From Parcubacteria group bacterium Gr01-1014_3 (lineage in GTDB: Bacteria; Patescibacteriota; Minisyncoccia; UBA6257; WO2-44-18), in assembly GCA_007376445.1 (NCBI GenBank), contig VMGF01000002.1, positions 103,928 through 167,927 of the forward strand: a stretch of DNA of 64,000 bases, written 5' to 3'. Shown here piece after piece: positions 4,963-55,192 of the stretch. Each line of letters begins with the position of its first letter. Within the stretch, counting starts at the first letter, position 1. The position numbers and the translations under genes were made by a program. Below the pieces are notes generated by a model. That model saw nothing but the letters and a program-made list of their open reading frames with translations. It made no database searches and was not told the DNA's origin.

Positions 4963-5307
4963 CTACTTATTCACGATCTCGATGCCGACCTGCGCTCCGT
5001 TATAAAGAATCGGTTCGATTTTTTCGTTTGGCGCTAGCTTGAGGTGATGTGCCAGGCGCTTCCAGGTGTGCATCGGATCCCATGGATTATTACGGCTTGG
5101 CTCTTCGGTGGTCGGCTCAACGCTGAGAACTTCGTGCAGGTATTCATAGGCATCCAGAGTTTCTTCGCCGCGCATCGCCGCCGCGACACGCCGAGCCTGA
5201 TCAATATCAAGCGCCATGATCACTCGGCTCTTCTGATCCTGCAAAGATTCGGCAAATCCATCGTGATAAATCACGCTAAATTCAATCTTGAAAGCCAAAT
5301 GCTTCAT
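4963..5307 (-). CDS. hypothetical protein
   Basis: ORF with downstream terminator; no motif recognised. Confidence 0.45.
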   Translation of the reverse strand: MKHLAFKIEFSVIYHDGFAESLQDQKSRVIMALDIDQARRVAAAMRGEETLDAYEYLHEVLSVEPTTEEPSRNNPWDPMHTWKRLAHHLKLAPNEKIEPILYNGAQVGIEIVNK

Positions 5308-5375
5308 CCCGTCATCTCCTTAAGAACTTCGAAAACTTTACTACACAAATTAGCAAAAGTCAAATAGGATTGACC

Positions 5376-5465
5376 CCGTTAGAAGTAGCCCGCCCATAGG
5401 CCCCTCCGGGGCGCGCATAGCCTGCCTGCCGGTAGGCATGCCGCGGGCGAGACTTCTAACGGGGT
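5376..5465. repeat. GC-rich ~90 nt element with ~20 bp terminal inverted repeats (ccccgttagaagtagcccgc / gcgggcgagacttctaacgggg)
   Basis: Strong long-range complementarity plus internal gcccc/ggggc hairpin, in an otherwise AT-rich intergenic region. Confidence 0.4.
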
Positions 5466-5493
5466 TGATAAATAGCTCTAAAACCGCTATAAT
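5465..5493 (+). promoter_or_regulatory. sigma70-like promoter (TTGATA-17-TATAAT) for tRNA-Met
   Basis: near-consensus -35/-10 with 17 bp spacer about 12 nt upstream of the tRNA 5' end. Confidence 0.5.
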
Positions 5494-5504
5494 TCCTTTA
5501 GAAA

Positions 5505-5576
5505 GGCGGCGTAGCTCAGTGGTAGAGCGAGCGTTTCATAAGCGCTAGGTCACAGGTTCGATCCCTGTCGCCGCTA
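5505..5576 (+). tRNA. tRNA-Met (CAT), elongator type (could be tRNA-Ile2/lysidine)
   Basis: GGCGGCG acceptor, GCTC/GAGC D stem, anticodon loop TTCATAA, T arm ACAGG-TTCGATC-CCTGT; no encoded CCA. Confidence 0.8.
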
Positions 5577-5586
5577 CTAATGAAAT
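5561..5586 (+). repeat. direct repeat copy 1 (tRNA-Met 3' end plus 9 nt: atccctgtcgccgctacTaatgaaat)
   Basis: 26/27 nt identical to 5768-5793. Confidence 0.6.
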
Positions 5587-5636
5587 TGTGGAACCAAACA
5601 CAAAAGTCGATTGCGTTTTTCAACTCCAACCTCCTG

Positions 5637-5735
5637 GGCAGGGATCGAACCGTGTTTCGCCCCGTATCAGGAAGGCTATCGGAAACCGAAGGTGTCCGAG
5701 ATGGGGGTCGGGGCGAAACGCATGGTTCGGTGAGC
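5637..5735. other. GC-rich structured insert: inverted copy of the tRNA T-arm (cagggatcgaacc) followed by a long hairpin (gtttcgccccg / cggggcgaaac, 11 bp perfect, extended to ~20 bp)
   Basis: seen directly in sequence; the two ORFs called here (5580..5768, 5588..5830) have no coding support. Confidence 0.35.
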
Positions 5736-5767
5736 TTTTGGGCTATCCAGCCAAAAGCGAAACTTTA

Positions 5768-5793
5768 ATCCCTGTCGCCGCTACAAATGAAAT
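5768..5793 (+). repeat. direct repeat copy 2 (atccctgtcgccgctacAaatgaaat), overlapping the murD start
   Basis: att-like duplication of tRNA 3' end. Confidence 0.6.
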
Positions 5794-7049
5794 CGCACAT
5801 GAAAATAGCAATTCTTGGCTTTGGACGTGAGGGAAAGGCGGTTTTCAAGTTTCTCTCCGCCCGAGGCGGATCCTCCTTCGGAGGAAAAAAAAATAAATAT
5901 AAAAAGGCAACTATAGAAGTTCTCGATCAGAAACATGGCCAGGATTATCTGAAAGATCTTGATACTTTCGATCTGGTCTTCCGCTCCCCTGGCGTGCCGT
6001 ATAATCGTCCGGAAATTCAACGAGCGATAAAAAATGGAGTTAAGTTCTCCAGCGTCACCAAATTATTTTTTGAACTCTGCCCGGCGAAAGTTATCGGAAT
6101 TACCGGAACAAAAGGAAAAGGCACGACTGCTACCCTGCTCTATAAGATCCTTAAAGCTTCTGGCGCGGACGTTCATCTCGCCGGAAATATCGGAAAACCA
6201 GCCATCGATATCCTCCCAAAACTGCGCAACTCATCGACTGTTATCTTGGAGCTTTCCAGCTTCCAGCTTCAGGACCTCGGCCAGTCCCCGCCAATTTCTA
6301 TTGTCACAGAAACCTTTGAAGACCACATGGACGCGCATAAGAGCGTCAAAGAATATCTGGACGCCAAAACTAATATCGCCCGACATCAAAAAAAGGACGA
6401 TGTGATTTTCTACTTCGCCGATAGCGACTGGGCTAAAAAGATCGCCCTCAAAAGTCCGGCGAAAAAGATCGCGGTCTATGGCGGATCATTCGGCTTAAAA
6501 AAGAACTTCGTGATGGCGGCAACCGTCGCGGCTTATCTTGGTGTAGACAGAAAATTCATCGTGCGGACTCTCAAAAACTTCCCAGGCATTAAACATCGGA
6601 TGGAATTAGTTGCGGAAAATTGTGGAGTCCGGTTTTATAACGATTCCGCCAGCACTAATCCTAGGACAACCGCGGCCGCGATCTTAGAATTTACTAATAC
6701 CCTAAACGCTAAACCCTATCCCCTAGTTCTAATCGCCGGAGGCAAAGACAAGAATCTGGACTACGCGCCGCTCGCTACCACCTTAGCCAATACATCTCAC
6801 GTAAAAACCGTGATCCTTCTAGGAGAAAACAAAAATAAGGTTTTCGAAAAATTGAAAATTGAAAATTTAAAATTGAAAATTGAACTTGCCGATGATCTTG
6901 AGATCGCGGTAAAAAACGCCTATCAATCAGCTAAAATATACGGTGGTGCTGTGCTTTTTTCGCCTGGAGCGGCAAGTTTCGATATGTTCAAAGACTATCA
7001 AGACCGCGGCGAGCAGTTTAAAGAGATTGTCAAAAAGCTTAAAAAGTAA
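5787..7049 (+). CDS. murD: UDP-N-acetylmuramoylalanine--D-glutamate ligase
   Basis: Mur ligase P-loop GITGTKGKGTT, NDSASTNP, C-terminal Mur ligase domain; start may be the ATG at 5802; low-complexity N-terminal insert (SARGGSSFGGKKNKYKK). Confidence 0.85.
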   Translation: MKSHMKIAILGFGREGKAVFKFLSARGGSSFGGKKNKYKKATIEVLDQKHGQDYLKDLDTFDLVFRSPGVPYNRPEIQRAIKNGVKFSSVTKLFFELCPAKVIGITGTKGKGTTATLLYKILKASGADVHLAGNIGKPAIDILPKLRNSSTVILELSSFQLQDLGQSPPISIVTETFEDHMDAHKSVKEYLDAKTNIARHQKKDDVIFYFADSDWAKKIALKSPAKKIAVYGGSFGLKKNFVMAATVAAYLGVDRKFIVRTLKNFPGIKHRMELVAENCGVRFYNDSASTNPRTTAAAILEFTNTLNAKPYPLVLIAGGKDKNLDYAPLATTLANTSHVKTVILLGENKNKVFEKLKIENLKLKIELADDLEIAVKNAYQSAKIYGGAVLFSPGAASFDMFKDYQDRGEQFKEIVKKLKK

Positions 7050-55092: not shown

Positions 55093-55119
55093 TGCGCCCT
55101 CGGCAGGGATCGAACCCGC
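55093..55119 (-). pseudogene. tRNA 3' fragment (T arm GCGGG-TTCGATC-CCTGC + acceptor 3' strand CGAGGGC-G)
   Basis: no matching 5' half (GCCCTCG) upstream; parent tRNA not in window. Confidence 0.5.
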
Positions 55120-55159
55120 AAAATCGGGATAGCCAAACTTAAGCTACTGCCAAGAATTT

Positions 55160-55192
55160 TAAAACCGCCATTGGGCCCAATGGCGGTTTTAG
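55160..55192. terminator. bidirectional hairpin terminator (aaaaccgccattgggcccaatggcggtttt)
   Basis: perfect 12-bp stem. Confidence 0.5.

Follow-up and report, generated by a model that had tools for sequence, protein, structure and literature searches.

Folded, protein-less elements behind Patescibacteria tRNA genes: an apparently undescribed family represented by a 181-bp insert between tRNA-Met and murD

The 64,000 nt of Parcubacteria group bacterium Gr01-1014_3 analyzed here (contig VMGF01000002.1; hereafter the window, in whose positions all coordinates are given) carry a short insert between a tRNA-Met gene and murD that is bounded by a duplication of the tRNA 3′ end. It belongs to a family, apparently undescribed so far, of small and strongly folded elements that contain no protein gene and lie behind tRNA genes of Patescibacteria. 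Related and metagenome loci used for comparison are denoted by L-numbers. We propose, with a probability of roughly 0.7, that the family represents a multi-copy, non-coding, non-autonomous mobile element specific for Patescibacteria tRNA genes, which would target the T-loop and depend on an enzyme encoded elsewhere.

Insertion at the tRNA-Met/murD junction

A repeat search found the last 17 nt of tRNA-Met and the 9 nt following them again 207 bp downstream, as the first-pass annotation had noticed. The repeat comprises 26 nt with 25/26 identical positions (96%; copies at 5561-5586 and 5768-5793); the 27 bp with 26/27 identities given earlier were one too many, since the bordering bases mismatch on both sides (g/a at 5560/5767 and t/c at 5587/5794). 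According to the Rfam tRNA alignment, the first copy starts at A58 of the T-loop. In the window, the 17 nt belonging to the tRNA are present exactly two times, as compared to 0.00 times expected from 100 shuffles. The DNA between the repeats measures 181 bp instead of the 190 bp proposed before, and its description as GC-rich holds only modestly (53-59% versus about 45-50% nearby). The inverted T-arm copy described for it is present (CAGGGATCGAACC, 5639-5651) and 100% complementary to 5555-5567 (T-arm positions 52-64), and so is the long perfect hairpin, the arms of which, GTTTCGCCCCG (5654-5664) and CGGGGCGAAAC (5709-5719), extend via a small internal loop to CGAACC/GGTTCG; folding yielded a minimum free energy of -69.9 kcal/mol with z = -3.1.

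That the tRNA 3′ part had received an insertion bounded by its own duplicated end was borne out by the comparison with related genomes which the first-pass annotation had proposed. In the two closest relatives, L109 and L110 (MurD 76% identical), tRNA-Met is joined directly to murD; the L109 sequence GGTTCGATCCCTGTCGCCGCTACAAATGAAATCGCGCATGAAAATC corresponds exactly to the downstream repeat of the window plus flank with nothing inserted, and L110 likewise has an empty site. Five more distant relatives (MurD 48-56% identical) have a co-oriented tRNA-Met ending 1-6 nt before the murD ATG and are empty as well. In the window, 207 bp, namely the 181-bp element and a 26-bp duplication, entered the tRNA-Met/murD junction. 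The native copy of the repeat is the downstream one, and the upstream copy holds a duplicate of the murD start codon. The duplicated target (26 bp) starts at T-loop position 58 and includes 9 nt behind the tRNA, so that the tRNA and the murD start both remain intact, and the element lies in an essential operon with tRNA and murD undisrupted. Coincidence or local slippage as the source of a repeat around structured DNA of unrelated origin, for which only the small size of the insert would speak, has practically no probability in view of the shuffle expectation for the 17-mer, the precision of the empty sites and the recurrence of the architecture about 28 times. The left segment of the insert (5587-5636) is missing from the empty sites L109 and L110 and has no homologue in other element copies. 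Its derivation (left 51 nt) from a decayed murD 5′ region was rejected, as the local alignment score of 17 was equalled by 21/500 shuffles. The parts of the locus are as follows.

5465-5493, + strand: promoter TTGATA-17 nt-TATAAT of the tRNA-Met/element/murD unit; 11/12 consensus match, conserved in L110
5505-5577 (5576 in a second call), + strand: intact tRNA-Met (anticodon CAT); ARAGORN, Rfam tRNA 70 bits
5561-5586, + strand: direct repeat copy 1, tRNA positions 58-74 plus TAATGAAAT, including the copy of the murD start codon
5587-5636, + strand: left non-conserved segment of the insert, at the position of the terminator-like hairpin B′ of other copies; no terminator here
5637-5651, + strand: aT, antisense copy of T-arm positions 52-66 (GGCAGGGATCGAACC)
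5639-5766, + strand: conserved structured core (P1 with apical domain, GGTTCG, P2, linker); full-length match to covariance model R1 with 137.5 bits (E 7e-29)
5646-5729, + strand: P1, long irregular hairpin; base CGAACC/GGTTCG, middle GTTTCGCCCCG/CGGGGCGAAAC
5678-5702, + strand: apical stem of P1 closing the conserved loop AACCGAAGGTG; conserved GGGGGTCGGGG on the 3′ side of P1
5730-5763, + strand: P2, hairpin GCTTTTGGGCTATCCAGCCAAAAGC flanked by G-Y ... R-C pairs; compensatory changes in 6/8 pairs
5764-5767, + strand: linker of 3-4 nt from the core to tRNA position 58 of repeat 2 (alignment A2 and junction table)
5768-5793, + strand: direct repeat copy 2, native displaced tRNA 3′ end plus native murD start region; identical to the L109 empty site (CGCCGCTACAAATGAAATCGCGCATG)
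5787-7049, + strand: murD, UDP-N-acetylmuramoylalanine--D-glutamate ligase; recorded 416-aa product starts at 5799; 100% identical protein, Mur ligase Pfam domains

On the + strand of 5300-5900 a single promoter-like site (5465-5493) and no terminator-like site between tRNA-Met and murD were predicted, hence the element sits within the tRNA-Met/murD transcription unit. The murD ATG at 5787 lies inside the downstream repeat, in agreement with the overlap noted before; the start of the recorded product is at 5799. In L109, L110, L006, L010, L016, L022 and L028, murD begins 1-14 nt after the tRNA-Met 3′ end with neither a terminator nor an obvious Shine-Dalgarno sequence, which suggests that the murD mRNA 5′ end in this clade is made by tRNA 3′ processing in a leaderless-like manner. 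A 62-codon open reading frame (ORF; 5580-5768) runs in the window from the duplicated murD ATG in repeat 1 through the whole element to a TAA at 5766-5768, 18 nt ahead of the murD ATG (5787). It could be due to chance or be a means of keeping murD translated via termination/reinitiation.

A second small insertion is present at this locus (5370-5468), namely a 91-bp palindromic element (5374-5464) resembling MITEs (miniature inverted-repeat transposable elements), with the terminal inverted repeats CCCCGTTAGAAGT/ACTTCTAACGGGG and TTGA duplicated at its flanks. It is missing from L110 (aaatagggTTGATAAATAGCC) and lies exactly at the -35 box of the tRNA-Met promoter, which the TTGA duplication regenerates. 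Its interior GCCTGCCTGCCGGTAGGCATGC resembles the palindrome CCTGCCTGCCGGCAGGCAGG nested in copies L082, L088, L093 and L099 of the tRNA-associated element. Just downstream of murD, L110 has an ORF of the LAGLIDADG homing-endonuclease type (1662-2307; weak Pfam match), where the window has tRNA-Asp.

An element family with a selected fold

Comparison of the insert with the loci of relatives by blastn gave a match in L002 (96% over 54 nt) and a weak one in L004. In both, the core lies behind tRNA-Asp, is flanked by a tRNA-Asp 3′-end repeat and contains an antisense tRNA-Asp T-arm. A metagenome scan with a degenerate pattern derived from the core returned 27 loci, made up of 24 true copies and 3 chance matches in GC-rich coding DNA. 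The covariance model R1, built from 17 distinct copies, scored 28 copies in the loci at 77-149 bits, about 21 of them distinct, and recovered the copy described here as its sole match in 64 kb (137.5 bits); one of the four tRNAs of the window carries the element. The shared core measures roughly 130 nt, and the common layout is tRNA, repeat 1, a variable segment, aT, P1, GGTTCG, P2, a linker of 3-4 nt and repeat 2. Repeat 1 starts at T-loop position 57/58 and ends 2-13 nt behind the discriminator, and the variable segment usually consists of an A-run, a GC hairpin and a T-run, i.e., it is terminator-like.

Exact repeats of the own tRNA (18-31 nt) were found in 14 distinct copies and in the near-identical L106, and their start coincides with T-loop position 57/58 in every such copy. 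The tRNAs concerned are Asp-GTC, Met-CAT, Val-TAC, Gln-TTG, Leu-GAG, Lys-CTT, Ile-GAT, Gly-TCC, Arg-TCG, Ser-GCT, Trp-CCA and one that is truncated or unidentified; in total, the conserved core occurs behind at least 12 tRNA isoacceptor types. In all copies the element is oriented as its tRNA. A scan of all 145 tRNAs in 0.92 Mb of related loci for copies of their 3′ ends (at least 15/17 matching within 1.5 kb) showed that 22 carry a copy of their own 3′ end, with all inserts measuring 70-340 nt.

Pairing statistics were obtained from alignment A3 using the secondary structure given by RNAalifold, which predicted 39 pairs. Standard pairing was present in 96.4% of the cells as compared to 88.7 ± 0.6 in shuffles, none of which (0/500) reached the observed value, and pairing fell to 32-44% when the partners were slid by 1-3 columns. 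Changes on both sides were seen in 15 pairs, and these compensatory changes exceed the expectation from relatedness and composition, as is characteristic of structured RNA. The fold is selected. Moreover, G·U cells outnumbered A·C cells (41 versus 9), from which it follows that the folded strand is the tRNA-sense strand; in the same vein, canonical cells amounted to 96.4% on the + strand versus 91.5% on the − strand. One U·G pair of P1 is kept in 15/17 copies, and the Y/R pair flanking P2 reads UA in nine copies, CG in six and UG in two, never CA. The loops, i.e., AACCGAAGGTG and GGGGGTCGGGG, and the tandem G·A pairs in P2 are far more conserved than the stems.

The aT pairs with GGTTCG at 5724-5729 and with the start of repeat 2, whereby helix P0 is formed by the 5′ half of aT and the first 4-9 nt of repeat 2. 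Over the 14 exact-repeat copies, aT and the corresponding segment of the own tRNA formed 5.86/7 pairs, whereas permuted partners formed 4.94 ± 0.22 (0/5000). In the predicted fold, P0 and the base of P1 (CGAACC/GGTTCG) stack as a duplex copy of T-arm positions 52-64/66, and P2 branches off at 57/58, exactly at the repeat boundary. The sense strand folds into a three-way junction, by which the T-arm region of the tRNA gene is restored in duplex form. A truncated tRNA-like sequence on the minus strand at about 55095-55165 shares 15 nt (GGCAGGGATCGAACC) with the aT; it has a D-arm-like part, the T-arm GCGGGTTCGATCCCTGC and the acceptor 3′ strand CGAGGGC-G-CA, it possesses neither an anticodon arm nor a 5′ acceptor strand, and ARAGORN and Rfam make no call on it.

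Searches for known families and for linked proteins gave no match. Rfam 15 returned nothing at the gathering or E-value thresholds for the element, only chance microRNA-type matches (E 1.8-10), ARAGORN detected no tRNA or tmRNA on either strand, and the phage, plasmid and viral collections, viral contigs included, contained no match. A minus-strand tRNA, a tmRNA or a split tRNA was rejected on the basis of these ARAGORN and Rfam results and because inspection by hand revealed neither a T-stem 5′ strand nor an acceptor 5′ strand. Signal recognition particle RNA, RNase P, 6S RNA, known ribozymes and group II domain V were discarded as well, as Rfam gave no signal and a by-eye motif comparison failed. 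No description of the family was found in the literature searched. Apart from the 62-aa read-through from the duplicated ATG in the window, no element copy contains an ORF, and clustering of the ORFs within ±3.5 kb at the 27 loci revealed no recurrent protein family beyond housekeeping synteny (RNase J-like, triose-phosphate isomerase, MurD and GatA). An autonomous parent insertion sequence with the same ends was not seen in the 0.92 Mb of related loci.

These searches bear on the possibility that the insert is the scar or minimal remnant of a classical integrase-borne tRNA island, consisting of attL-attR with the interior deleted. Its size (180-330 bp across the copies) falls within the range of a full attP with arms, that of lambda measuring about 240 bp. 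Furthermore, a regenerated tRNA with its displaced 3′ fragment as direct repeat is the defining mark of tRNA-integrating islands (PMC4383910), and the identity block begins in the T-loop, a symmetric tRNA sublocation, as for the T-loop class of integrases such as that of mycobacteriophage Ms6 (PMC1762012). However, neither a tyrosine nor a serine integrase was found inside or adjoining any of the 28 copies, no larger island bounded by tRNA 3′-end repeats exists out to the locus ends in the 0.92 Mb, no T-stem 5′ half-site lies beside repeat 2, and there is no phage, plasmid or viral match. Base-pair covariation and the G·U strand bias are not expected of double-stranded protein-binding arms, and the reading as classical attP arms was rejected for this reason. 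Closely similar cores also occur at different tRNA species. An island remnant is therefore improbable, and with the same covarying core at no fewer than 12 tRNA types and no integrase in or beside any copy, the suggestions of an integrase-made attL/attR pair and of an excised island, both contained in the first-pass annotation, are not supported. Its remaining options, a tRNA-derived miniature element and a small structured RNA, are both close to the data.

Similar architectures were observed in additional loci. A relative of the family, termed type B, lies behind tRNA-Asp of other Patescibacteria (L016 2696-2860; L019 8290-8450, minus strand; L021 5387-5595). It shares GGGGTCGGGG, AACCGAGGGGTT and GAGCAGTGA with the element family and has exact or near-exact repeats of the own tRNA 3′ end as well as an antisense T-arm, and its core is rearranged and divergent. 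Three metagenome-assembled genomes of Clostridia carry an ORF-less element of 216-337 nt behind tRNA-Val(CAC) (L044 5540-5893, L045 5348-5696 and L058 5392-5624) in which a long perfect hairpin is followed by an antisense T-arm, a core of several hairpins and an exact tRNA 3′-end copy including CCA. Here, the antisense T-arm and the start of the tRNA 3′ copy form a 15-bp closing helix, L058 is devoid of an optional internal module, and Rfam, phage and plasmid searches gave no match. The architecture may therefore extend beyond Patescibacteria. In L006 (6417-6506), a longer part of tRNA-Asp, from about position 44 to the 3′ end, is repeated 73 nt behind the gene, with neither an antisense T-arm nor the conserved core. 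This small tRNA-end duplication is of a different kind and looks more akin to a classical scar.

Mobility, proposed mechanism and competing explanations

Several observations point to turnover of the elements. One 54-kb contig carries copies behind Leu-GAG and Ile-GAT (L094 and L100), and in one sample series the cores of the Ile, Gly, Gln and Trp copies are distinguished by only a few positions, as read by eye from the alignment. In L087, the last 11 nt of the core stand directly ahead of a third repeat, as the remnant of a tandem insertion, and L099, with a 5′ part like that of an L093-type copy and a 3′ part and flank like those of an L088-type copy, looks like a recombinant of two cores. 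By-eye comparison showed that the aT of the window matches the resident tRNA at 14/15 positions and the tRNA-Met allele of L088/L097 (GGTTCGATCCCTGCC) at 15/15, and that the aT of the L088 type is nearer to the tRNA-Met allele of the window than to its own, a hint that aT moves along with the element and is not copied from the resident tRNA. In L107 (688-1946; also L086), two copies 1133 bp apart bracket an ORF of 255 aa (951-1718) with a metalloprotease-like HxxGxxH motif, the second copy being preceded by a decayed tRNA-Trp T-arm; the arrangement may represent a small composite with cargo or an array of tandem insertions.

With moderate confidence, we propose that the duplication is made from the target and not carried in by the element, because closely similar cores occur at different tRNA species and because the recent exact-repeat copies L100 and L094 have a poorly matching aT. 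An element supplying its own 3′ end would break the new tRNA when cores that differ, by eye, at few positions sit at different tRNAs of one sample or one contig. The notion that the element supplies the tRNA 3′ end, be it by an integrase or in a CTX-like manner, is disfavoured for this reason, homing to the same tRNA being set apart. The right junction would be fixed at the T-loop, with a first break at 57/58 and a second, variable one 18-31 nt downstream giving rise to the repeat; the fixed boundary beside the 3′ end of the element and the variable far boundary fit this order. More tentatively, aT may recognize the T-arm of the target by base pairing, and the folded sense strand, as a transcript or as single-stranded DNA, may serve as the substrate of an enzyme encoded elsewhere. 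Candidate routes include a target-primed (retro-type) copy, a CTX/attC-type single-strand exchange or another one.

Going one step further, the family might constitute a new nucleic-acid-guided class of mobile elements, the folded sense strand of which, most interestingly a transcript, reads the T-arm by pairing. We regard this as possible but doubtful. In such a scheme, aT would pair with the sense strand, GGUUCG and the tRNA-like tail with the antisense strand, and copying into the T-loop position would proceed by target-primed synthesis or single-strand exchange through a host or trans-encoded enzyme. A target copy paired with its antisense counterpart, together with a hairpin branching off exactly at the insertion point, is what would be expected of a reprogrammable guide, and its specificity changes in nature, as lineages at 12 tRNA types show.

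Some findings weigh against a mobile element. No mobilizing enzyme, excised form or filled/empty polymorphism within a population was seen, and the nearest empty sites belong to different species. In L081, L084, the L088 type, L093 and L103, the tRNA-like 3′ segment at the end does not match the adjacent tRNA, or an intact tRNA is missing upstream, which we tentatively ascribe to rearrangement. The repeat lengths are partly ambiguous owing to A-rich flanks, and the left segment, in most cases a good terminator, is hypervariable although the cores are conserved. In most copies a terminator-like hairpin lies between tRNA and core, which argues against strong transcription of the core there and makes single-stranded DNA as viable as RNA. 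Moreover, the far better conservation of loops than of stems between genomes with MurD only 59% identical fits a selected cellular function as well as a selfish element.

This leads to the explanation that the element is a resident functional small RNA tied to tRNA transcription units and made with or just after the tRNA, with mobility being secondary and the copies at many tRNAs having arisen via duplication. The antisense T-arm and the tRNA-like tail could then act in tRNA processing, in quality control, as a decoy or as a splint offering a replacement 3′ end to tRNAs that have been cut in the T-loop. Such a role would be in accordance with the RNA-type covariation of the sense strand including the conserved U·G pair, the tandem G·A pairs and the conserved loops, with the 96% identity of the apical loops over 54 nt at the MurD divergence just given, with the 100% co-orientation with the tRNA, with the location in tRNA operons devoid of a terminator in the window and in L088/L097, and with the better-than-chance fit of aT to its own tRNA. 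Additionally, in 14 of about 21 distinct copies the 3′ repeat still reproduces the acceptor strand exactly, though P0 requires only its first 4-9 nt. By contrast, the nearest relatives do without the element at the same locus, most tRNAs do not have it, as seen from one in four in the window, and the terminator-like hairpin usually precedes the core. Non-tRNA flank bases are duplicated as well (8 nt in the window and 13 nt in L094), which implies a DNA event rather than selection on RNA, and the recently inserted exact-repeat copies L100 and L094 can have a mismatched aT. We therefore consider a resident RNA rather unlikely and retain the non-autonomous mobile element as the preferred reading.

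If that reading is true, Patescibacteria, and perhaps Firmicutes, carry an unannotated repeat family that remodels tRNA loci and needs masking or modelling in annotation, since the element mimics att sites in the absence of an island, adds tRNA fragments and sits in essential operons. Identification of the enzyme would show whether bacteria with small genomes host protein-less, nucleic-acid-guided mobile DNA, and R1 makes phylogenetic profiling concrete. Should guidance by pairing be confirmed and the Clostridia layout prove to be the same, this would amount to a widespread and overlooked way of colonizing tRNA genes. A cellular RNA, on the other hand, would add a class to the RNAs linked with tRNAs.

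Comparison with known systems

The elements resemble tRNA-integrating islands (Islander definition, PMC4383910; T-loop sublocation of Ms6, PMC1762012) in their location at a tRNA gene that is kept intact, in the displaced 3′-end direct repeat starting in the T-loop and in the occurrence of tandem arrays and decayed fragments at the same tRNA (here L087 and L105). They differ from islands in that they measure only 170-250 bp, possess no integrase or ORF and no double-stranded core half-site beside the right repeat, and show a conserved single-strand fold, one lineage at many tRNA species and a flank duplication of variable length.

Like MITEs and cis-mobilizable elements, they are short, non-coding, multi-copy and intergenic and have to rely on an enzyme from elsewhere; an inverted repeat (aT versus the T-arm-like right end) is present. 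Compared with MITEs and other non-autonomous elements as surveyed before (PMC11602168), the duplication is 18-31 bp with one fixed boundary instead of 2-10 bp of constant length, the left inverted repeat lies away from the terminus, a specific structural position of tRNA genes serves as target, and RNA-type covariation extends throughout. The inverted repeats formed by aT and the T-arm-like right end measure 10-15 nt, with aT located internally, 30-60 nt from the left end.

In CTX-phi attP(+), which is used by XerCD, and in integron attC, one strand folds such that inverted segments rebuild the duplex of the chromosomal target; CTX-phi requires no element-encoded recombinase, and tiny elements are possible. 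By analogy, the strand-specific fold described here rebuilds a target duplex, namely T-arm positions 52-64/66 via P0 and P1a. The target, however, is the tRNA T-arm in place of dif or attI, nothing corresponds to the large conserved apical domain, and carrying an own copy of the target would not explain the spread across tRNA species. The bridge (seek) RNAs of IS110/IS1111 are structured non-coding RNAs of about 150-180 nt with segments matching both DNA strands of the target, and the complementarity to two target strands is a possible parallel. Unlike IS110, the elements have no adjacent DEDD recombinase gene, no two-loop target/donor layout and no Rfam or sequence similarity, and IS110 insertion leaves no long repeat.

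Target-primed retroelements, i.e., short and long interspersed elements (SINE/LINE logic) and group II introns with pairing between exon- and intron-binding sites (EBS-IBS), offer a further analogy, as they would share the conserved sense-strand RNA structure, an antisense guide, a fixed 3′ junction, a variable duplication and a variable 5′ side. Differences consist in the absence of a linked reverse transcriptase, of poly-A, of intron domains and of a ribozyme core. To our knowledge, no bacterial SINE-like element is known, and recognition of the T-arm by pairing would make the family a bacterial SINE-like or bridge-like element devoid of its own protein. As a proposed tRNA-targeting non-autonomous mobile element, it would be of a known kind, of which this variant is new.

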